In this document: positions 4,517-62,978 of the stretch, piece by piece
Layout of the letters: each line of letters opens with the position of its first letter
Position numbering within the stretch: the stretch's first letter is position 1
Assembly (NCBI GenBank): GCA_016187125.1
Contig: JACPKF010000001.1
Location: 302,178-366,177, forward strand
Reading direction: 5' to 3'
Source of the DNA: Candidatus Saccharimonadota bacterium
GTDB lineage: Bacteria > Patescibacteriota > Saccharimonadia > Saccharimonadales > UBA10212
Length of the DNA: 64,000 bases
Translations under genes and position numbers: made by a program
Notes under the pieces: generated by a model
The model's input: only the letters and a program-made list of their open reading frames with translations
Told to the model about the DNA's origin: nothing
Database searches by the model: none

Positions 4517-4631
4517 CAATTTTGTGAAAACACGCATTGCAGGTTTTTACAAAATTGAGAGGAGAAGCATAGCGCTAAGTTGAAGCTTTTGCCCCATAGG
4601 CAAAACAAGACAGGCGCGTAGGCTTCGACGA
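4517..4631 (+). promoter_or_regulatory. stable-RNA promoter/leader cassette (copy upstream of tmRNA)
   Basis: CAATTTTGTGAAAA-N-TTTTTACAAAATTGAGAGGAGAAGCATAGCGCTAAG, then hairpin TTTTGCC-ccat-aGGCAAAA, then GGCGCGTAGGCTTCGACGA immediately before GGGGCTGA. Confidence 0.65.
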
Positions 4632-5227: not shown

Positions 5228-5468
5228 CGTAAAATTGCCATCTGTAAAACTTCGCTTTGCTCGTTTTAACATAGGGCAATCACGTGGCGCAGCCCTTTGC
5301 GCATGGCAATTTTACGTGGGACGTGGTCGCTTTAGCGACTTTACGTCCCAAGATCTCGTGGCAAGGCCATGAGATGAATGTTGATGAAGATTTTGAGTGC
5401 CCCGTGGCAAACGAAGTGAGTTTTACGGGGCTTTTTCGCAATTTCCTACATGGCGCAGCCTTTTGCCC

Positions 5469-6905: not shown

Positions 6906-6952
6906 CTCTCACATGTTTAGTTTTAGGTAACCTAAAACTAAACATGTGAGAG
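6906..6952. repeat. 47-nt near-perfect palindrome (23-nt arms, 1-nt centre)
   Basis: CTCTCACATGTTTAGTTTTAGGT a ACCTAAAACTAAACATGTGAGAG. It lies between the 7052 gene stop and the 6826 gene start, and a T-run follows on the plus strand (caggttttttt). Confidence 0.8.
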
Positions 6953-17653: not shown

Positions 17654-17815
17654 CCTCAGGCATTACTTGGTAGTAGTTCTCATTACTGTTTAGTTTATCA
17701 TCGCCGCTTCCTCAAAAAAACTTGGGTTTAACCAAAGAGCAGAAATGCCCTTTTGCTCCAAGGCGCTTGTCGTTATACTATCAATGTATTAAATGTATTA
17801 AAGAAAGGAGAAATT

Positions 17816-18040
17816 ATGGACGGACAAGACGACAAGCCAATGGGCCCGCCAGCACCGGCACCAATGCCTGGTGGCGACAACCCACCGACAACTCCACCGG
17901 CACCAATGCCTGGTGGTGGAGATCAGGGTGACGACACGGGCGGTATGCCTGGAATGCCCCCCAAAGAAGATGGCGGCATGGGCGAAACACCTCCCCCCAG
18001 CGGCAACGAGCCGCCAATGCAGCCACCCACCTCAATGTAA
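17816..18040 (+). CDS. small acidic Pro/Gly-rich protein (74 aa)
   Basis: AAAGGAG lies 6 nt before the ATG at 17816. Translation: MDGQDDKPMGPPAPAPMPGGDNPP...; low complexity. Three overlapping track ORFs in other frames were rejected. Confidence 0.5.
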   Translation: MDGQDDKPMGPPAPAPMPGGDNPPTTPPAPMPGGGDQGDDTGGMPGMPPKEDGGMGETPPPSGNEPPMQPPTSM

Positions 18041-18432
18041 AACTCCGCGGGCTTGCCAACCAGGGCTTTTGAAATCCATGGTGATCCCTGGCAGAATTCG
18101 ACCCACGCGTCAAAAACCTTGGGTTTTTGCGTTCGGGCCCGGCTTACGGTTTACTTAGTTTATGGAGCCCCCACGGCTGAAAGCCGTGGCACCTCCAATT
18201 ACCCTCCTTCGTCCGCCGGCTGGCGGACTACGGAAGGTTATCCGCCAGCCCTCAACCAGTTGATAGACTTTCCTTAGCGACATCCGCTCAAAGCCTAAGA
18301 CCGCGCATTCAACCACGGCTAAAGCCGTGGTCCTCTGCGAAGGCGGATAAACATCGCTCCGGCTGTTCGATACCCTTAGTAGCTACTAGCGAATTCAAAA
18401 AGCCCACCTCAACGGTGAACTTATCGAATGTG
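18041..18432. repeat. GC-rich cluster of palindromic units (BIME-like)
   Basis: Contains ACGCGTCAAAAACC/GGTTTTTGCGT, CCACGGCTGAAAGCCGTGG (18171-18189), TCCGCCGGCTGGCGGA (18212-18227) and CCACGGCTAAAGCCGTGG (18313-18330). Confidence 0.75.
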
Positions 18433-18508: not shown

Positions 18509-18551
18509 GTCTTGCGACTATTTTATCCTATCATAAGGAGTTGACACCTGT

Positions 18552-18578
18552 CTGCTACAAGGATTATCCTTGTAGCAG
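18552..18578. repeat. REP family F1 palindrome, left flank of RAYT-1
   Basis: CTGCTACAAGGATTATCCTTGTAGCAG ends on the base before the ATG at 18579. Confidence 0.9.
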
Positions 18579-19208
18579 ATGCCGCTAAAAAATGTCGTTA
18601 AGGAGTTTGTGGCTGAAAGCTACTACCATGTTTACAATCGTGGTGTCTATAAACAGAATATTTTTACCCAGGAAAGAGACTATACTGCCTTTTTAAGTCT
18701 TCCTAAACGACATCTATCTAGAGAACCAGCTCAAGATCACACTAGGCGACCACTCCCTCATTTACGTAATGATGTGGAATTATTAGCATATTGCCTAATG
18801 CCAAGCCACTTTCATCTCCTTATATACAACAAAAAAGAGTCTGGTCTGACCGACCTGATGAGAAGCATGATGACAGCCTATAGCAGATACTTTAACAAAA
18901 CCCATAAACGAAAAGGCGCCCTGTTTGAGTCGTCATATAAGGCTAGCTTGATTGATAATGAAGCTTACCTATGGCATATCAGCCGTTATATTCACCTTAA
19001 TCCTCAAGACCTAGGCTCCAAATATATTTCTTACCCCTACTCTAGTTATGCTTATTACATGGGTAATAAAAAAGCCGAATGGATTAACCCAGAAAGAATA
19101 TTAAAGATGCATGGCGACGAATTGAGTGATTATGCGAGTTTTGTAAAGGATTACGAATCAATGCGCGCTGAGCTCCAGCAACTTAAACTTTATCTAGCAG
19201 ACCACTAG
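18579..19208 (+). mobile_element. IS200/RAYT-type HUH-Y1 transposase-like protein (RAYT-1)
   Basis: 209 aa: YYHVYNRGVYKQNIF..RDY..FL, LAYCLMPSHFHLLIY (HUH), FESSYKASLID, SRYIHLNPQDLG (Tyr region). Flanked on both sides by the F1 palindrome. Confidence 0.8.
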
Positions 19209-19251
19209 TTGCTACAAGGATTATCCTTGTAGCAATTGTAGCAACTAGTGG
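19202..19251. repeat. REP family F1 palindrome, right flank of RAYT-1 (nested hairpins)
   Basis: GCTACAAGGATTATCCTTGTAGC at 19211-19233 sits within CCACTAGTTGCTACA ... TGTAGCAACTAGTGG. Confidence 0.9.
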
Positions 19252-19270
19252 TCTCGCTTCCTTGAGCAAC

Positions 19271-19630: not shown

Positions 19631-20794
19631 TTAGCTGCGTCGGCGAGTCACAAAGTAGTGACTCACGCCGGCAAAGGTGCTTACCCCGGCGAACAAAGCA
19701 GCAAGGCTGCCAGTACCCGTGTTAGGCAAAGTTTTGCCTACTTGGGGAGTGGTAGGAGGATAGCTAGGAGGACTAGGAGGATAAGTGGGAGGAGTCGTTG
19801 GGGGAGCAGGCTTGGCAGGAGGCGGAGTTACAGGAGGTGTTGAAGGAGGTGGGGGCGGCGTGGCAAAGCTTACTTGATTTGAACAATAGTCGTATTGGAC
19901 AGCACCACCGACATTGAAGGCCAAAGTGGACCAAATGGTATATGTACCATCCTGTGTGTAAGTGTGGCTGGCCGAAGGGCTGCTGGTAAGCAGTGGGGTG
20001 CTGCCATCTCCCCAGTCAAAAGTGACGCTATTTAAAACTGCACCGCCAGTAGCTGTATAGTCTACGCTAGCGTTAACCTTACGATTTGGCAGAACTGCCA
20101 CGTTCAGCAAGTTACAAGAGTAAGCTGGTATAACTTGAGGCTGCACGTGTACTCGAACGCGGAGGGCTACCCAGCCGCTAAATTCTGCGCAACCGGGTAC
20201 GTCACCATTAACTGCATTGTAGCCAATTTGGGCGCCGCTGCCGGTAACAATACTGTCACTAAGCTGCACGTCATTAAGTGCGTTGGTTCGAAGTATGGCT
20301 GTGCCAGGCTCGTATTCAAGCGAAAATGGCTGGGAGCCGGTAAAGCCAACCGTATCAGTAACAGTGCCAGGGTTAGCATTATCAGCCGAAATAGAGGCAA
20401 TGCTCATTAGACTTGTAGCGGTATTTTGTGGCAGATTAATTTTAACTCTAGTGTTATGAGCAACTAGGCCAAGATTGGCCCCGGCATTATTGTGGAAGTA
20501 AATCCTAAGAACTAATTCTTGGTTATTGCTCACCGAGATGCTGTCAGCGTAAGTGCTAGTGCTAGCGGCGGCATCTCGAACCGTGTAAAACGCTCTTTCG
20601 TCACCGACAACTGGGTTATCGGTAATTGAGTTAAAGGTTATATAAGACGCCGGATTTTGCCAAGTAAAAGTTGTACGGTCTGGGGTCCAGCCGGCCAATA
20701 CTGATTTGCCGGTTAAGACAAAAACCAGCGTAGCAACCACCAACAAAGCACTAAGACTGCCGCGCTTGCTCTTTAAAGTTTTAAGTATATTCAT
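19631..20794 (-). CDS. LPXTG-anchored surface protein with PKD-like domain
   Basis: 387 aa. Signal peptide; FDWGDGS...HTYTQDGTYTI (PKD-like); Pro-rich stalk; C-terminal LPNTG followed by a hydrophobic segment and RRRS. Confidence 0.8.
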   Translation of the reverse strand: MNILKTLKSKRGSLSALLVVATLVFVLTGKSVLAGWTPDRTTFTWQNPASYITFNSITDNPVVGDERAFYTVRDAAASTSTYADSISVSNNQELVLRIYFHNNAGANLGLVAHNTRVKINLPQNTATSLMSIASISADNANPGTVTDTVGFTGSQPFSLEYEPGTAILRTNALNDVQLSDSIVTGSGAQIGYNAVNGDVPGCAEFSGWVALRVRVHVQPQVIPAYSCNLLNVAVLPNRKVNASVDYTATGGAVLNSVTFDWGDGSTPLLTSSPSASHTYTQDGTYTIWSTLAFNVGGAVQYDYCSNQVSFATPPPPPSTPPVTPPPAKPAPPTTPPTYPPSPPSYPPTTPQVGKTLPNTGTGSLAALFAGVSTFAGVSHYFVTRRRS

Positions 20795-20820
20795 ATTATT
20801 ATCCTTTATTCAATTTATTC

Positions 20821-22722
20821 TTATGGTGAGGGCGGGATTTGACTAGGGGGTTGCTTTGGAGCTGGTTGTTCAGGTGCAGGGGCTGGGGCTGGGGCTGGTG
20901 CGGGTGCGGGTGCGGGTGCGGGAGTTTGGGGAGTTTGGGGAGTCTGAGGAGTTTGGGGAGTTTGGGGAGTCTGAGGAGTTTGGGGAGTTTGGGGAGTCTG
21001 AGGAGTTTGGGGAGTCTGAGGAGTTTGGGGAGTTTGGGGAGTTTGGGGAGTCTGAGGAGTTTGGGGAGTTTGGGGAGTCTGAGATGGGGCGGGAGCAAGT
21101 TGAGTAGGGGTCTCTGCAGGAGGAGCAGGTTTAGCGGCCGCCTCGCCAACTTGGAATTTTGCTACACATTCAGCCAGTCCTTCCACAGGTACAACGGATC
21201 CGTCATGGAGCCTAAATACGGCTCTGCCGTCATTGATAGCGTTAGCATATTTATGGCTGATGCCTTGCAATTGCAATTTTCCAGCCTCGGTTGAAGGATC
21301 AATCCTGACCGACTGACCATCACCAAAGTCAAGAATGATTTCCGGTTTTTTGACATTATTGAACTCGTTAGTTCTGAGGCTGAATGTGATTTCTTTTTGT
21401 CCGGTCGCAGCTGCTTCCGCAGCAGTACACTTGGCTGTCGCAGCAGGACTCGGGGTAGGCCCTGGTTTGGGAGTAGGTGCCGGTTTAGGTTTCGGTTGCG
21501 GCTTGGGTTTGGGAGTAGGTGCCGGTTTAGGTGGCTTAACCTCTTTTTCAACGTTTTTGAGTTCTACTGTAAGATCAACAGTTTTTGGATTAGAGTCGCC
21601 GTGTATGTTCAGATACACTAAGTGGGGATTTTTCTCATCGTAGTCCGGCAAATCAGTTTCATCAATAACTAATCTTGAGCCGTCTGGACAAGATGGACCT
21701 CTCTGAGGGTTTCTGAGTATTTTAACTAGCTTGTCTAAGATAAGTACGCCGTTTCTATAGCATCTTTCACGTGCTGAAAATACACCACTAGGCGCTGGTA
21801 TTGGAAACTCACGAGTAGTCACCAATGTTTTGTGAAATTCAGGAGTAACAGGAGCGGGCACCTTGGCGGCTGGACCTTGTGGACCGGGTTTGCCCTGTTT
21901 ACCCTGTGGGCCAGTTTTGCCAGCTGGACCCTGTGGGCCAGGTTTGCCAGCTGGACCTTGTGGACCGGGTTTGCCCTGTTTACCCTGTGGGCCAGTTTTG
22001 CCAGCTGGACCCTGTGGGCCAGGTTTGCCTGAAGGGCCAGGTTTGCCTGGAGGACCCTGTGGGCCAGATTTGCCGGGTGCAGAAGGGGTTTGTGTTTTTT
22101 TGACAGGAACGTAGACCCATACAGGGACTTCTTTGCCTGTCCGTGGATTTGAACTCTCATCACTAGCACCCTCGCCGACAATTCTTTCAACTCTTTTGGA
22201 GCCTTCACGAGGGGTAAGAGAAAAACCTTCAGGAAACTCTCCTTTCAAGGAATCGATTCTAACCCATTCTGTAGAACCATCTGGCAGAGTTTTGTTACCA
22301 ACCGGTACAATCTTGCCATCCTTACAGCCTGTGTTTTGAACTACGGCACCACCAGCAAGGGTAGCCCGGCCGAAATGATTTTTTACATATCCTAGTACAG
22401 ACTCATCAACGGTTGGAATTTTATAGAATCTCACGACATCATCTAAAATACCTTTTTGCCGCCAGTGATTAACTAAAATTTCTGCCGTCGGTGCAAAGCC
22501 GCCGCAACGATCAGCCAAGAGACTAGGCGTAGCTTCTTTCAAAGGAGCGGCTTCAGCATTGCCGCTAAATTTGCCAACACCTGCTATAGTAGCAACGGCT
22601 GCTAGCCCACTAGCCATAAACATCGCTAGCTTACCTCTGCGGTCGGGAGTGGCTGTCGGTTCAGTCTCAAAAGCAGGAACCAGAGTTAAGACTGGTGCAG
22701 CTTCCATAGTAGGATGATTCAC
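20821..22722 (-). CDS. secreted collagen-like / TPQ-repeat surface protein
   Basis: 633 aa with a GTG start 10 nt after AGAGGA. It has 23 uninterrupted G-X-Y triplets, PKPxP tracts, DFGDGQS (PKD-like), 18 TPQ repeats and a (PA)n tract. Confidence 0.8.
20923..21084. repeat. 18 tandem 9-bp repeats (AGTTTGGGG / AGTCTGAGG) encoding (TPQ)18
   Basis: Counted directly. The two unit variants are interspersed. Hexamer repeats GGGGCT/GGTGCG (about 20877-20922) lie adjacent. Confidence 0.95.
21868..22074. repeat. collagen-like G-X-Y coding repeat (23 triplets)
   Basis: [69 protein letters not shown]. It contains an internal duplication of about 63 nt. Confidence 0.9.
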
Positions 22723-23008: not shown

Positions 23009-23056
23009 TGTGATAGCTTGTGATAGGTTGAACCTATCACAAGACCTATCACAAAT
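23009..23056. repeat. REP family F2 palindrome, flank of RAYT-2 (stop side)
   Basis: TGTGATAGCTTGTGATAGGTTGAACCTATCACAAGACCTATCACA, with the core at 23020-23040. It overlaps the RAYT-2 stop codon. Confidence 0.9.
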
Positions 23057-23669
23057 CATTAGCTAACTGATGCTTAAGCACAGCCAGTTCAGCTTTTGTC
23101 TCAACATAATCATCTAAGAATTGTTGATATTCCAAGGAGTTATTACTAAATAAGCTCAGAATAGGCTCTGGATTTACCCACGTAGTTTTTTTAATGCCCA
23201 TGTAAACCGGATAGCTTGAATATGGCCAGTGTTTGTAATCATTAGGATTGAGATGTATGTAGCGTGATATATGATGCAGATAAGCATCTGCGTCAATCCG
23301 AGAAGCTCTGTACACACCTTGAAAGAGACCGCCCACTCTTTGGTATCGGTTGTTGAAATACATAACGTAACCTGTATTAACACGTCGCATTAGTTCTATA
23401 ATGGCCGACTCTGATGACTGATAAAAAAGCAGGTGTAGGTGGTTGGGCATCAGACAATATGCCAGCAGCTTAAGCTCGCTTTGAAAATTCTTAAAAATAT
23501 GTCTGTTTTGTTTGTTAGTAGATTCCCCTGATAAGTATTTCTTCAGGAGCCCCAGAAAAATAATGTAGTCCTGCTCGTCAGTAAAAATTACCCGCTTTTC
23601 TATACCTCGATTGTAAACATGGTAATAACTATCCGGCGCAAACTCTCTAACAACATTTCTACTTGGCAT
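23049..23669 (-). mobile_element. IS200/RAYT-type HUH-Y1 transposase-like protein (RAYT-2)
   Basis: The start is taken at MPSRNVV (ATG 23669); the track GTG start lies inside the palindrome. Motifs: YYHVYNRGIEKRVIF, LAYCLMPNHLHLLFY (HUH), SRYIHLNPNDYK. Confidence 0.8.
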
Positions 23670-23690
23670 GTGATAGGTTAAACCTATCAC
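23670..23690. repeat. REP family F2 palindrome, flank of RAYT-2 (start side)
   Basis: GTGATAGGTTAAACCTATCAC lies immediately adjacent to the ATG at 23669. Confidence 0.9.
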
Positions 23691-23729
23691 AAAATAGGCT
23701 GGCTGTCATTTATGAGTTAGAGCAATTTT

Positions 23730-23767
23730 CCATGTGATAGATGTGATAGGTTTAACCTATCACATGG
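23730..23767. repeat. REP family F2 palindrome (second start-side copy)
   Basis: CCATGTGATAGATGTGATAGGTTTAACCTATCACATGG, with the core at 23743-23763. Confidence 0.9.
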
Positions 23768-23789
23768 AAATGTCGGTTATTATTAGGAG

Positions 23790-25148
23790 ATGAAGATTGG
23801 AATTGTTGGCTGGGGCGTGGAGGGGCAAAGTGCCTACCGCTATTTTGGTCCCGAGCACCAGTACTTGATTGTCAACGAACATCCCCGGGATGATTTTCCA
23901 CCAGAGTCTGATAAGTTACAAATTAAGTTTCTAACAGAGGAGCGGCCGCCAGGTGTTACCAGTAATGTCACTGACCTATCTTATCTGGAAGGCATCGATA
24001 AGTGCGACAAAATTATTTACTCTGTTACCTCTGTTAAAAACCTCGAGCGGCGTTTTGGCGAAGACAAGAAATTTTGGCAAAAAGCCACCACTAGTCAACA
24101 CATCTTTTTTGAAGAGGTAAAGACTAAAAACATTATCGGCGTGACTGGCACTAAAGGCAAAGGCACGACTGCCACACTGATTTACCAGATGCTGAAAGCC
24201 AGTGGCTTAAAAGTATTCTTGGGTGGCAACATCGGCACCAGCATCCTAGATTTTGTGAACGATGTTAAGCCGAACGATTGGGTAGTGCTGGAGTTATCTA
24301 ATTTTCAGCTCTATAACTTTCCTTACAGCCCGCACATCGGCGTTTGTCTGATGATTACCGACGAACACCAAGACTGGCACACCAGTGTAGACGAGTATAT
24401 AAAAACTAAAATTAACCTCTTTTCGCACCAGTCTAAAGACGATATCGCCATCTATTTTGCCGATGGTGAGCTGTCAAAACAGATCGCTGGCACCTCGCCG
24501 GGGATAAAAATTCCCTACTTTGCCAAGCCCGGCGCAGTCGTTAAAGACGAGGGGGTTATTGTGGTTGGCGACCCAGAGACTGAGGTTATAAAAACTGATC
24601 AACTAAAACTGATTGGGCGGCACAATCTGGAAAATATTTGCGCTGCCGTAACAACCGTTTGGCAAGTTGTCCAAGACAAAGAAGCTATTCAAAAAGTCTT
24701 AAGCACTTTTACCGGCCTAGAGCACCGCTTAGAGTTTATTCGTGAACTTGGCAATGTCAAATATTATGATGACTCGTTTGGCACCACGCCTCAGACAGCC
24801 ATTACTGCCATGAAGGCTTTTACGCAGCCAAAAGTTATGATTTTGGGTGGTATTGATAAGGGGCTTAGCTTTGACTCTCTTGCCAACGAAGTTGTAAAAA
24901 ATAGAGTCCGTCATGCCATATTAATTGGCCATGTTGCCCCTAAGATTGCGACTTTGCTCAGGGATAACAACTTCAGCCAAATTACGACTGGGCTAAAAAA
25001 TATGGATGAGATAGTAAAAACAGCTCGTGAAGTAGCCGAACCCGGTGACGTAGTACTTCTGTCTCCAGCGTCGTCCAGTTTTGATATGTTCAAAGATTAT
25101 AAGCAAAGAGGCGAAAAATTTAAGGCCGCCGTGCGAGCCCTAGCTTAA
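23790..25148 (+). CDS. murD: UDP-N-acetylmuramoylalanine--D-glutamate ligase
   Basis: 452 aa: IGVTGTKGKGTT P-loop, Mur ligase middle and C-terminal features (HRLEF, DSFGTTP-like, SPASSSFDMF). Confidence 0.88.
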   Translation: MKIGIVGWGVEGQSAYRYFGPEHQYLIVNEHPRDDFPPESDKLQIKFLTEERPPGVTSNVTDLSYLEGIDKCDKIIYSVTSVKNLERRFGEDKKFWQKATTSQHIFFEEVKTKNIIGVTGTKGKGTTATLIYQMLKASGLKVFLGGNIGTSILDFVNDVKPNDWVVLELSNFQLYNFPYSPHIGVCLMITDEHQDWHTSVDEYIKTKINLFSHQSKDDIAIYFADGELSKQIAGTSPGIKIPYFAKPGAVVKDEGVIVVGDPETEVIKTDQLKLIGRHNLENICAAVTTVWQVVQDKEAIQKVLSTFTGLEHRLEFIRELGNVKYYDDSFGTTPQTAITAMKAFTQPKVMILGGIDKGLSFDSLANEVVKNRVRHAILIGHVAPKIATLLRDNNFSQITTGLKNMDEIVKTAREVAEPGDVVLLSPASSSFDMFKDYKQRGEKFKAAVRALA

Positions 25149-25170
25149 ATAGTGGATTGTAAACTTTGAT

Positions 25171-25206
25171 ACCCCACTTTTGGTCCGATCGGACCAAAAG
25201 TGGGGT
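25171..25206. terminator. 36-nt perfect palindrome between convergent murD and murI (bidirectional terminator-like)
   Basis: ACCCCACTTTTGGTCCGATCGGACCAAAAGTGGGGT. Confidence 0.75.
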
Positions 25207-25226
25207 AGTTTGATTGCTATCTTAAA

Positions 25227-27078: not shown

Positions 27079-27194
27079 TCGTTGCGACTTACGCGCCTAC
27101 CTCGTTTTACATAATCAGTAAAAACTTCAGTCTAGCGCTACGAGTGCTCCTCTCAATTTTGCAAAAACCTGCACTGCGTGTTTTTGCAAAATCG
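27079..27194 (-). promoter_or_regulatory. stable-RNA promoter/leader cassette (tRNA-Lys copy)
   Basis: In gene orientation: CGATTTTGCAAAAACACGCAGTGCAGGTTTTTGCAAAATTGAGAGGAGCACTCGTAGCGCTAGACTGAAG, hairpin TTTTAC-tgattat-GTAAAA, then GGCGCGTAAGTCGCAACGA. It differs from the 58571..58686 copy by about 1 nt over about 105 nt. Confidence 0.7.
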
Positions 27195-27910: not shown

Positions 27911-27953
27911 GCTACAAGTGCTACAAGAGTGCTACAAGGATTATCCATGTAGC
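27911..27953. repeat. REP family F1 copy with two leading half-sites
   Basis: GCTACAAG (27911), GCTACAAG (27920), then GCTACAAGGATTATCCATGTAGC (27931-27953, 1 mismatch). Confidence 0.85.
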
Positions 27954-42437: not shown

Positions 42438-42483
42438 TCATTTCCTAATAGATTATGCGATCGCATAATCTATTAGGAAATGA
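42438..42483. promoter_or_regulatory. 46-bp perfect palindrome upstream of the HTH-MurA gene (candidate operator)
   Basis: TCATTTCCTAATAGATTATGCGA|TCGCATAATCTATTAGGAAATGA. It is followed by TTGACG-16 nt-TATCAT and then the ATG at 42550. Confidence 0.6.
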
Positions 42484-48620: not shown

Positions 48621-48645
48621 GTTTACAAGGAGCCTCCTTGTAAAC
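48621..48645. terminator. hairpin between convergent genes (F1-related palindrome)
   Basis: GTTTACAAGGAGCCTCCTTGTAAAC, preceded by a TTGTTTACAAGGAG half copy. Confidence 0.55.
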
Positions 48646-58570: not shown

Positions 58571-58686
58571 TCGTCGTGACTTACGCGCCTACCTCGTTTT
58601 ACATAATCAGTAAAAGCTTCAGTCTAGCGCTACGAGTGCTCCTCTCAATTTTGCAAAAACCTGCACTGCGTGTTTTTGCAAAATTG
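58571..58686 (-). promoter_or_regulatory. stable-RNA promoter/leader cassette (tRNA-Pro TGG copy)
   Basis: Nearly identical to 27079..27194 (1 mismatch seen in the shared ~105 nt). Confidence 0.7.
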
Positions 58687-62474: not shown

Positions 62475-62978
62475 TTATTTTTTGGGTTTAGTTATATTTG
62501 GCGGCGAGCCATATGCAGGTACAGCGATTTTGTCTCCGCCAGCTGGCGGATTGCCGGCAAGTAAATCTTCAATCCCTTCCTGTATCCAACCTTGGCCTCT
62601 ACGCGCGACTATCGGAATATGGTTGGCAGAAGCCAAGGCATTGGCGACAGTCAGGCCAATCCGCAGGCCTGTAAAACTGCCCGGGCCTTTGAAGCAAACG
62701 ATTCCCTGGATATCATTCCAACAAACATTTGATTTGTTAAGTAATCTCTTAATTTGGGAATGAATAGTCTTGGATAACTCCAGATGGGCTTGCCATTTAA
62801 GCTGGCCGAGCTTTTTTTTGTCGTCATTGTGAAAGGTCCGTCCTTTCACACTATATAAATACAGCTCGGCCTGATGCTTATCGGTCCTAATTCCTAAGAT
62901 AGCTGTGCCCCGCTCCTTTTCAGGGTGGAGCAGTCGGTAATCAGATTGTGGAACACCTTGAAAAGGTGCGCGGGTCAT
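62475..62978 (-). CDS. tsaB: tRNA t6A biosynthesis protein TsaB (N-terminal domain type)
   Basis: KGPGSFTGLRIGLTVANALA. The ATG at 62978 overlaps the tsaE stop (ATGA). The first ~24 codons are encoded by an F5 repeat, and the C-terminus contains the F3 palindrome. Confidence 0.8.
   Translation of the reverse strand: MTRAPFQGVPQSDYRLLHPEKERGTAILGIRTDKHQAELYLYSVKGRTFHNDDKKKLGQLKWQAHLELSKTIHSQIKRLLNKSNVCWNDIQGIVCFKGPGSFTGLRIGLTVANALASANHIPIVARRGQGWIQEGIEDLLAGNPPAGGDKIAVPAYGSPPNITKPKK
62535..62550. repeat. F3 palindrome TCCGCCAGCTGGCGGA (inside tsaB)
   Basis: Exact 16-mer, translated as NPPAGG on the minus strand. Confidence 0.9.
62908..62974. repeat. structured repeat family F5 (copy 5) inside the tsaB 5' end
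   Basis: CCCCGCTCCTTTTCAGG-GTGGAGCAGTCGGTAATCAGATTGTGGAAC-ACCTTGAAAAGGTGCGCGGG. Confidence 0.7.

Follow-up and report, generated by a model that had tools for sequence, protein, structure and literature searches.

A window of 64,000 nucleotides (nt) from the genome of a Candidatus Saccharimonadota bacterium, the whole stretch of DNA analyzed here, contains a gene that we call RAYT2 and, around this gene, three copies of a short perfect palindrome that we call REP2. The names refer to repetitive extragenic palindromes (REPs) and to REP-associated tyrosine transposases (RAYTs). Our preferred explanation, to which we give a probability of roughly 70%, is that RAYT2 is a domesticated, vertically inherited RAYT-like Y1 HUH enzyme, that palindromes of the form GTGAnAGG..CCTnTCAC are its cognate REP-type hairpins, and that enzyme and hairpins together make up a REPtron. 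A preliminary description of this locus had called the module REPtron-like, and this is supported by our data: the palindrome is also present away from the gene (at 14131, in two other genomes of the Candidate Phyla Radiation (CPR) and in 12 metagenome stretches), both RAYT proteins of the window are HUH proteins by profile search, and the flanking hairpins are not ordinary terminators. Loci in related organisms are designated by L numbers.

The RAYT2 protein and its inheritance

RAYT2 encodes a protein of 206 amino acids (aa; Table 1) that is 100% identical to NCBI entry MBI2588900.1 of Candidatus Saccharibacteria. The two RAYT proteins of the window, MBI2588900.1 and MBI2588898.1, are encoded on one 397-kb contig of a Candidatus Saccharibacteria metagenome-assembled genome (MAG). 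Because the first two residues, M1 and P2 of MPSRN, are invariant in an alignment of 33 homologues, we take the ATG at 23669 to be the true start. A longer open reading frame (ORF) from a GTG at 23690 was considered and is unsupported, the MPSRN start being conserved instead. The proposal in the preliminary description that RAYT2 is a paralogue of the gene at 18579..19208 on the plus strand, here called RAYT1, was borne out by an identity of 50% between the two products.

Both proteins scored above the cut-off of 23 for the Pfam family Y1_Tnp (PF01797), RAYT2 with 39.5 bits (7e-10) and RAYT1 with 45.8 bits (8e-12). The HUH motif of RAYT2 is NHLH (H77, H79) and the catalytic tyrosine is Y137 in YIHLNP; both histidines and the tyrosine are invariant in alignments of 20 and 33 homologues. 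Within YIHLNP, residues Y137, I138, H139 and N141 are invariant and P142 is present in at least 90% of the homologues. Since the HUH histidines and the tyrosine do not vary among these 33 proteins, catalysis has probably been retained in the RAYT2 family. The AlphaFold2 model of RAYT2 has a predicted local distance difference test score of 88 and a predicted template modeling score of 0.84, with the C-terminal extension predicted as one long helix. Because searches of the PDB by sequence were uninformative (RAYT2 as a single sequence had no match, and a profile search gave merely marginal ISDra2 matches at E ~0.04), a fold search was required to place the protein. The top solved match was the Escherichia coli RAYT-REP hairpin complex 4ER8 (E 1.2e-5), with the ISDra2 and IS608 TnpA structures ranking after it, and the structure-based identity to the 4ER8 protein is 14%. 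A Pfam scan found no helix-turn-helix (HTH) or DnaA_C domain in either RAYT2 or RAYT1. The family is large in Saccharibacteria, where the two RAYT queries matched 4569 and 3088 clusters at E <1e-5. By profile and motifs, and for RAYT2 also by fold, both proteins are Y1 HUH enzymes.

We compared RAYT2 with orthologues at eight independent loci that are 61–79% identical (those listed are L009/L010, L011, L012-14, L015, L016, L034 and L035). At all eight of these loci RAYT2 is the divergent neighbor of murD. The order folD-murI-murD|RAYT is found in L009, L011, L012, L015, L034 and L035, with MurL in place of murI in L011, and L016 has the order murD|RAYT. What lies on the other side of the gene varies: in the window, L009 and L016 there are genes for collagen/PKD surface proteins, and at the other loci genes for response regulators. 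When identities to the window proteins are set side by side (RAYT2/MurD: 79/74, 70/39, 68/62, 63/47, 61/48 and 62/46%), RAYT2 is the more conserved in six of six cases. RAYT1 orthologues, with identities of 56–88%, always adjoin tRNA-Glu and pgk (L016, L017-19, L020-21, L038), and this synteny holds in five of five genomes, that is, in four lineages beyond the window. The RAYT1 of 'bacterium G20' is 88% identical to that of the window as compared with 67% for Pgk. Purifying selection on the RAYTs appears to be stronger than on MurD or Pgk.

Neither relatives of RAYT2 nor the REP2 palindrome were found in 2.9 million viral contigs, and the relatives seen on plasmids are confined to 15 plasmids and are ~30% identical. 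On the basis of these searches we reject carriage by phage or plasmid. The two RAYT copies of the window are 50% identical to each other, and the window has no identical copies. Because RAYT2 is syntenic, more conserved than MurD, absent from viral contigs and rare on plasmids, it looks like a vertically inherited, domesticated RAYT and not like an insertion sequence (IS). Vertical inheritance and housekeeping-like evolution have been described for RAYTs (Bertels et al., 2017; PMC5581495).

Palindromes at the two RAYT genes

REP2 is a 21-nt palindrome, GTGATAGGTTNAACCTATCAC, with four exact matches in the window (14131-14151, 23020-23040, 23670-23690 and 23743-23763), three of which surround RAYT2. 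All four sites had been given exactly in the preliminary description. No further site with up to three mismatches was found in the window, where 0 are expected from 100 shuffles, and the heptamer GTGATAG occurs 19 times in the window compared with 4.7 expected. The palindrome is a perfect 10-1-10 dyad with a 10-bp stem, a loop of 1–3 nt and a GTGA/TCAC foot, and as DNA hairpins the copies have energies of -8.7 to -20 kcal/mol (z -5 to -10).

As had been described, the proximal copy touches the RAYT2 ATG, its last base being at -1, and no Shine-Dalgarno sequence is present. The two upstream copies, proximal and distal, are exact reverse complements over 25 nt (100%), so that a single long hairpin with an energy of -26 kcal/mol is possible; the distal copy has one additional left half-site (GTGATAG, 23734-23740) and an alternative outer stem (23727-23740/23757-23770). 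Downstream of the gene, the core is nested in an outer tier in which GTGATAG at 23010-23016 pairs with CTATCAC at 23046-23052, and the two-tier DNA hairpin has an energy of -20.1 kcal/mol (z = -10.3). This copy had been described as overlapping the stop codon. The overlap is real for the outer half-site, CCTATCAC at 23045-23052, which holds the stop codon (23049-23051), but not for the core, which lies 8 nt past the stop. In the same way, additional GTGATAG/CTATCAC tiers had been ascribed to every copy and are present with three of the four, but not with the copy at 23670. Two left half-sites in tandem, GTGATG (14112) and GTGATAG (14121), come before the isolated copy at 14131, and CATCAC comes after it; this copy adjoins a gene for 247 aa that is absent at that position in L009, L016 and L020. 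A consensus scan found 0 terminator-like sites and no U-tract around the RAYT2 module. Rfam, searched at gathering and E-value thresholds, contains no family for the hairpins and gave generic microRNA-like sub-threshold matches alone.

Palindromes are kept, with compensatory changes, in every orthologue examined. The proximal palindrome is at -21 and ends at -1 of the ATG in seven of the eight RAYT2 orthologues; in L011 it is at -23 and ends at -3. The distal palindrome lies 35–65 nt further upstream and is inverted relative to the proximal copy at seven of eight loci. The downstream palindrome contains the stop codon in L011, L012, L015 and L034 (TGA being positions 2-4 of GTGA) and is within ~10 nt of the stop in the remaining orthologues. 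A second, inverted downstream copy in L009 and L035 results in REP doublets on both sides of RAYT2. The sequence of the palindrome differs between lineages (GTGATAGG, GTGAGAGG, GTGAAAGG) and the loops vary, with pairing kept. In an alignment of 25 copies, 91% of cells are paired, and two-sided changes were seen in 19 cells, at three stem positions, compared with 10.7 in shuffles. The covariation score was reached by none of 500 shuffles, and slid registers pair at 27–55%.

All copies within one genome share lineage-specific peculiarities, asymmetric mismatches included. For instance, an A.G mismatch at stem position 4 is found in all four L009 copies and an AA.CG mismatch in all four L035 copies. 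As judged from the aligned copies, this is concerted evolution. Because independently selected dyads would not show shared asymmetric mismatches, the data fit copies that were templated from one another.

RAYT1 has a palindrome of its own, REP1, at both ends. One copy, TCTGCTACAAGGATtATCCTTGTAGCAGA (18551-18579), abuts the RAYT1 ATG, and a second (19209-19235) comes directly after the stop codon, followed by an additional right half-site and then an inverted copy of the end of the gene (to 19254). The hexamer TTGACA lies 8 nt upstream of the REP1 palindrome and is kept in RAYT1 orthologues. In four genomes of the RAYT1 clade the palindromes are of the CTACA(A/G)GG type, and changes in one arm are compensated in the other (..AAGGAT/ATCCTT.., ..AGGGAT/ATCCCT.., ..AAGGTT/AACCTT..). 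The fifth and more distant one, L038, has a related CAAGG type, in the form of overlapping (T)TGCAAGG/ACAAGG-type palindromes on both sides of the gene. The eight RAYT2 orthologues have GTG(A/C)nAGG-type palindromes. The inner core AGG-(A/T)T-N-A(A/T)-CCT is common to REP1 and REP2, whose differences lie in the outer five or six bp (GCTACA versus GTGAT). Private REP families had been claimed for the two RAYTs. The outer stems do differ, but the AGG-N5-CCT core is shared and the families are low-copy. The related idea of co-specificity between protein and hairpin is consistent with these results: at all 13 loci compared, each protein clade goes with its own hairpin type, but the hairpin families are related.

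The positions fixed differently in the two protein clades (RAYT2/RAYT1) are R26/Q, H57/R, Q84/N, W148/Y and F174/H, and the clades also differ by a 4-aa insertion after YIHLNP. Q117/E (LFQG versus LFES) is seen in the clade consensus lines only and failed the clade-difference filter. In the E. coli RAYT, the stretch after the W[EQ] motif contacts the GTAG foot. In the RAYTs described here, the inner core would be read by residues common to both paralogues and the outer stem (GTGAT versus GCTACA) by clade-specific residues, the candidates being the five fixed positions, Q117/E and the 4-aa insertion.

The exact REP2 core was also found at six or more loci of a Nealsonbacteria MAG, within a composite unit of ~120 nt, and one of these units lies 75 nt upstream of a RAYT-like gene whose product is 38% identical to RAYT2. 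A hairpin type can thus persist through far more protein divergence than separates RAYT1 from RAYT2. The RAYT-like gene is at 5297..5992 of L003 and encodes 231 aa. The composite repeat (MAG PUNQ01, metagenome Ga0207421) consists of two or three units of the GTGATAGG type together with conserved spacers (..aagtcNgaaatgaactcaatttgaagat..) and occurs across many contigs of one Nealsonbacteria-like organism; contigs with this type of repeat are L001-L004, L006, L008, L022-L026 and L028.

Tandem duplications of one palindrome arm (7–9-nt units with 1–4-nt spacers) recur by REP1 and REP2 copies in several lineages. They are found at 14112/14121, 27911/27920, 23010/23046 and 19236 in the window and at the downstream REPs of L012, L034, L018 and L016 in relatives. 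At 19199-19254, the half-site duplication is accompanied by the final 10 nt of RAYT1 in inverted copy. These duplications may be footprints of nick/rejoin chemistry.

On the murD side, 26 nt (27 in L012) separate the end of the distal palindrome from the murD start downstream of it in all eight genomes, the murD start of L015 having been corrected by eye for this comparison. A -10-like hexamer (TATTAT, TATGAT or TATGCT) lies 6 nt before the murD ATG in all eight. From these conserved hexamers we infer that 23764..23789 is the murD core promoter and that it gives a leaderless or near-leaderless mRNA, which suggests that murD transcription is leaderless in these Saccharibacteria. The distal palindrome probably overlaps the -35 region of this putative promoter. 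These promoter statements are our own reading of the hexamers; a promoter consensus scan around the module found nothing specific and nothing at 23764-23789, with promoter-like sites at background rate. An AT-rich hexamer just upstream of the REP2 palindrome is conserved in orthologues. A -10 box inside REP2 (TAACCT) was considered as a general feature and rejected, as it is not conserved in orthologues.

Dispersed palindromes and neighboring features

Ten hairpins of the window have an AGG-N5-CCT core and five or more outer pairs beyond it, compared with 0.06 in shuffles. Five of them flank the two RAYT genes, and the others are at 14131, 48621, 8960, 9340 and 62829. Two more palindromes, at 27931 and 9307, fall just outside this filter. 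Positions of all features are given in Table 1.

Three of these REP-like palindromes lie in frame in ksgA. An alignment of KsgA from 21 Saccharibacteria orthologues has an indel hotspot at aa 68-88 of the window protein, and seven of the proteins have no insert there. LQGQxLQ units occupy the hotspot in the window protein, where they are encoded by the 9307 and 9340 palindromes, and in P0234. P0235 and P0236 have KGRTFH / KGRTSH..RGPTFH, which are the peptides of the palindrome type found in tsaB, and other inserts occur elsewhere. This polymorphism in presence and in type is, as read from the alignment, our best evidence that the palindromes are, or were, mobile. When KsgA and TsaB were aligned to solved structures the insertion status of the palindromes was undecided; the orthologue alignment settled one ksgA site.

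The tsaB-type palindrome, GTGAAAGGTCCGTCCTTTCAC, is found at the same tsaB site in L029 (8531) with its center inverted (VKGPSFH) and inside ligA of L007 (3768), another Saccharibacteria MAG. The window has no RAYT gene cognate to such palindromes, although the RAYT2 orthologues of L015 and L035 use GTGAAAGG-type REPs. GTGAAAGGTCCGTCCTTTCAC was also seen at 4183 of L036.

The two CPR genomes with exact REP2 are the Nealsonbacteria MAG and another Saccharibacteria MAG. About 9 kb of sequence extending the window ends contained no new copies. Isolated REP2 copies in L027, L029-L033 and L005 share a 5' flank, TAAGCATTA(G/C)T, right before the palindrome, and the isolated window copy is without it. 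The shared flank suggests a longer repeat unit in those organisms.

Table 1. Positions of the RAYT modules, related palindromes and murD in the window.
Feature	Position	Strand	Remarks
REP1 copy in ksgA/rsmA (coding sequence 8719..9561, -)	8960..8982		in frame, encodes ..ATRIILVAN..
Two REP-like palindromes in ksgA, TTGCAGGGATTGTCCCTGCAA and TTGCAAGGCTTGGCCTTGCAA	9307..9360		encode LQGQSLQ and LQGQALQ
Isolated REP2	14112..14166		core 14131-14151; intergenic
Module 1	18551..19254	+	RAYT1 coding sequence 18579..19208; REP1 at both ends
Downstream REP2	23010..23052		core 23020-23040, extended 23017-23043; nested in outer tier
RAYT2 coding sequence	23049..23669	-	Y1 HUH single-strand DNA endonuclease/transposase homologue, 206 aa; Pfam, invariant residues, AlphaFold2 fold
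Proximal REP2	23669..23691		core 23670-23690; ends at -1 of RAYT2 ATG
Distal REP2	23727..23770		core 23743-23763; inverted relative to proximal copy; ends 26 nt before murD ATG
Distal REP2-murD segment	23764..23789	+	26 nt; TATTAT at 23778-23783; from comparison of 8 orthologues
murD	23790..25148	+	conserved divergent neighbor of RAYT2
REP1 copy, intergenic	27911..27953		palindrome 27931-27953 with one mismatch; left half-site GCTACAAG twice in tandem before it (27911, 27920)
AGG-N5-CCT hairpin GTTTACAAGGAGCCTCCTTGTAAAC, intergenic	48621..48645		between convergent ORFs; orphan superfamily variant
Third palindrome type, GTGAAAGGTCCGTCCTTTCAC	62829..62849		in frame in tsaB-like ORF 62475..62978 (-), encodes VKGRTFH

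Between the two RAYT genes lies a block of surface-protein genes (19631-22722). The preliminary description had pointed out that both RAYTs flank it; this seems to be incidental, and most relatives have response-regulator genes there. It had also raised the possibility that the segment 18552-23767 is variable or inverted in relatives. The surface-protein block is indeed hypervariable, but it is not inverted in relatives, and we reject an invertible segment between the RAYT genes, since gene order and orientation agree in the window, L016 and L009, the three genomes that have the block in common. Of the two proteins encoded by the block, one has 387 aa, with PKD and LPXTG-like motifs, and the other 633 aa, with collagen-like GPxG and PT/PQT repeats. 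These proteins diverge far more than the products of the flanking genes, from 56% identity over partial length to undetectable, and the number and sizes of the genes differ in L009, L016, L017 and L020, with conserved orientation.

Other palindromes were noted in the window. An imperfect one, CAATTTTGCAAAAACCTGCAtGCGTGTTTTTGCAAAATTG, has three copies (4517-4557, 27156-27192, 58646-58686), two of them ~76–78 nt upstream of minus-strand tRNA genes (tRNA-Lys and tRNA-Pro), and may be a shared promoter or regulatory element. Three long perfect palindromes have no T-run after them: one of 47 nt at 6906-6952 with outward-facing CTCTCACATG...CATGTGAGAG ends that resemble GTGAGAGG-type REP half-sites, one of 38 nt at 25170-25207 between the convergent murD and murI, and one of 46 nt at 42438-42483 in a divergent intergenic region. 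The region between pgk and tRNA-Glu (17700-18430) is GC-rich, with strong local hairpins (e.g. 18312-18331) and a Pro-rich ORF (17753..18040); Rfam had no match to its part at 18100-18430 even at E <=1.

Alternative explanations and comparison with known systems

In the REPtron that we propose, the enzyme would, by analogy with E. coli TnpA-REP and IS608 TnpA, bind the hairpin extruded on single-stranded DNA and nick and rejoin at its foot. This activity would occasionally copy REPs to new sites, homogenize the resident copies and leave tandem half-site duplications. The gene-proximal copies would double as cis-regulatory elements. By overlapping the promoter/5' end of RAYT2 on one side and the murD -35 region on the other, they would keep transposase expression low and tie the module to murD. 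Such action in cis is probable because the proximal copy abuts an ATG without a Shine-Dalgarno sequence and the distal copy lies in the murD promoter region. The frozen synteny would be explained if the module is entangled with murD expression in this way.

Several results weigh against the REPtron. We infer cleavage and mobility for the RAYT2 system from analogy. Both proteins are below the cut-off of 80 bits for the NCBIfam equivalog NF047646, REP_Tyr_transpos (RAYT2 39.0 and RAYT1 48.8 bits), and the motifs of RAYT2 fit subclass 2.1, which has been reported without REPs. REP2 is without the canonical 5' GT[AG]G foot and has (T)GTGA...TCAC(A) as its foot; the CTAC...GTAG of REP1 are paired stem ends and not an unpaired 5' GTAG. 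Copy number is low, with one isolated exact REP2 in the 64-kb window and 2–6 exact copies per genome in the two matching reference genomes, and isolated palindrome copies were not found in ~100 kb of relatives' DNA around the RAYT gene. At 8960, the REP1 copy adds only 2 aa in the alignment of KsgA orthologues and is no clean insertion. Specificity also does not track overall protein divergence: the Nealsonbacteria protein, 38% identical, goes with the same core and RAYT1, at 50%, with another stem.

Some features of the locus would suit an autonomous IS of the IS200/IS605 type (~23010-23695, 0.7 kb) that is still mobile as a whole and has the palindromes as its subterminal end hairpins. The proximal and downstream copies are directly oriented, like IS200/IS608 ends, in five of six informative orthologues, the ORF exactly fills the space between the hairpins, the fold also matches ISDra2 and IS608 TnpA, and RAYT1 adjoins a tRNA gene, a classic integration site. 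However, a mobile unit would not be expected to keep one locus and one register to murD in all eight orthologues at 61–79% identity, nor a place next to pgk/tRNA-Glu in four further lineages, and the window has two copies only, 50% diverged, of a protein more conserved than MurD and Pgk. Together with a class-2 Y...NP motif in place of the IS200 Y...Q, a length of 206 aa as compared with ~150 aa for IS200 TnpA, and the absence from viral contigs and rare, distant occurrence on plasmids, this makes an IS very unlikely. Ordinary RNA elements (terminators, attenuators or mRNA-stabilizing hairpins) that flank a decayed transposase gene and have no link to its protein are hardly credible. The hairpins are stable, and REPs downstream of genes are known as RNA elements (PMC3733652), but those described here are upstream of the gene too, have no U-tract, no terminator-like site and no Rfam family, track the protein clade at both gene ends over the 13 loci, and flank a RAYT gene that is intact and strongly conserved.

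It is also unlikely, to a lesser degree, that the palindromes are double-stranded operators and not mobile DNA, with the HUH protein co-opted as a regulator of itself and murD and the scattered copies being other regulatory sites or chance relics. Perfect 10-1-10 dyads, a distal copy fixed 26–27 nt upstream of the murD ATG in all eight genomes and accompanied by a -10-like hexamer, a proximal copy ending at -1 of the RAYT2 ATG, and the TTGACA 8 nt upstream of the palindrome in the RAYT1 clade are all what operators might look like, as are the low copy number and a gene conserved like a housekeeping gene. What operators leave unexplained is that the catalytic histidines and tyrosine are invariant in 33 homologues, that copies have lineage-specific asymmetric mismatches in common, as in copied DNA, that half-site duplications recur beside them, and that palindromes lie in frame in ksgA, tsaB and ligA, with different ones at a single ksgA site. 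The operator explanation is compatible with the REPtron, in which a regulatory role of the gene-proximal copies is included, and may be partly true. If the palindromes were only regulatory dyads, the locus would be an example of a transposase recruited as a regulator.

A more far-reaching idea, about which we are doubtful, is that the RAYT module of Saccharimonadia is more than a tolerated relic and forms a core host-serving unit wired into the promoter of the essential cell-wall gene murD. It draws on the 26–27-nt distance between distal palindrome and murD start that every orthologue keeps and on the slower evolution of RAYT2 as compared with MurD. The enzyme would act on hairpins or cruciforms there, coupling expression of murD and of its own gene to DNA single-strandedness (replication or supercoiling), and its occasional off-site activity would sow 7-codon palindrome cassettes into the essential genes ksgA, tsaB and ligA. 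If true, RAYTs would have a concrete function for the host, and this in a minimal genome.

Saccharibacteria have small, reduced genomes, and the REPtron proposed here would be a stripped-down case: the RAYT paralogues number one or two and the cognate hairpins of the window about a dozen, in a fixed register with the promoter region of an essential gene. With paralogue hairpins that differ only in the outer stem, a clean specificity swap would be possible. REP/RAYT biology is extended to the CPR, with REP-type palindromes fixed in frame in essential genes there. The role that RAYTs play for the host and the ways in which REPs arise and persist are regarded as open questions (PMC5581495; PMC6006769).

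As a comparison, the E. coli REPtron consists of TnpA-REP/RAYT and flanking REPs or bacterial interspersed mosaic elements (4ER8; Messing et al., 2012; Ton-Hoang et al., 2012; as presented in PMC6006769). The Saccharibacteria module resembles it in the Y1 HUH fold and Y...NP motif, with 4ER8 as the best structural match of RAYT2, in having single, divergent gene copies flanked by their own hairpins, in the inverted pairs of hairpins (REPINs) and, as far as the window shows, in repeat copies away from the gene. It differs in that RAYT2, with 206 aa and a long C-terminal helix, has a structure-based identity of 14% and falls below the NCBIfam cut-off, and in that REP2 has a perfect 10-bp stem and a GTGA/TCAC foot whereas the E. 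coli REP has an imperfect, bulged stem and a 5' GTAG. The window has about a dozen members of the palindrome superfamily compared with hundreds in E. coli, and the repeats abut the start codon and overlap the stop exactly.

In terms of classification, YIHLNP has the Y-x-x-x-N-P of class 2 (Quentin et al., 2018; PMC6006769), and the two 50%-identical copies in the window are the low-copy, divergent paralogues expected of RAYTs. Subclass 2.1 of that scheme (Bertels Group 1; the TIRYTs of Di Nocera et al., 2013) has the motifs NH[YF]H (or NHVH), FQ (or W[EQ]) and Y[IV]HLNP (or YIELNP) (PMC6006769, Table 1). No REPs are reported for it; its genes have nothing or long terminal inverted repeats with GGGGWSAS (PMC6006769). 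By motifs alone, and not by a profile, our proteins fit here: they have NHLH/NHFH/SHFH (clade consensus NHFH, window proteins NHLH and SHFH), LFQG in place of W[EQ], and YIHLNP, and they share the C-terminal extension and low copy number. In contrast to what is reported for subclass 2.1, short perfect palindromes occur on either side of the two paralogues and of every orthologue, and RAYT2 has 206 aa compared with a median of 238, with no DnaA_C/HTH-like Pfam match in its tail.

IS608 and ISDra2 share with RAYT2 the HUH/Tyr fold, directly oriented end hairpins and an element of ~0.7 kb whose ORF fills the space. In IS200, too, the start region adjoins a hairpin. RAYT2 differs from the IS200/IS605 group in having Y...NP and not Y...Q and in being a syntenic, single-copy gene that is not mobile as a unit; of the features of subclass 1.1 (Y...Q, ~150 aa, near-identical copies), it has none in the window.

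Closer parallels are the multi-RAYT genomes of Pseudomonas and Stenotrophomonas, which, as far as they are presented in PMC6006769 (Bertels and Rainey, 2011; Nunvar et al., 2010, 2013), have divergent paralogues, each with its own REP type, and inverted doublets. Vertical inheritance and housekeeping-like evolution are a further likeness (PMC5581495). Their families have hundreds of copies and GTAG feet, unlike the tiny families with a common inner core in a CPR host described here. The in-frame copies resemble Rickettsia palindromic elements and intragenic GTAG/CGTC REPs (PMC3733652), which are short palindromes in frame in conserved genes, those of replication and repair included (here ligA), and in the latter, too, REP termini supply stop codons. 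Our units differ from both in being 21 nt long (7 codons) and in the different types at one ksgA site.

REPtrons, multiple RAYTs with their own REPs, REPs over the ends of RAYT genes and intragenic REPs have thus all been described before (PMC5581495, PMC6006769, PMC3733652). Full-text literature searches found nothing that links RAYTs or REPs to Saccharibacteria or Patescibacteria. New here are the host group, a subclass-2.1-like protein that comes with REPs, perfect palindromes that are short and have no GT[AG]G foot, a repeat family of very small size, a murD register frozen over deep divergence, and a RAYT that evolves more slowly than its essential neighbor.

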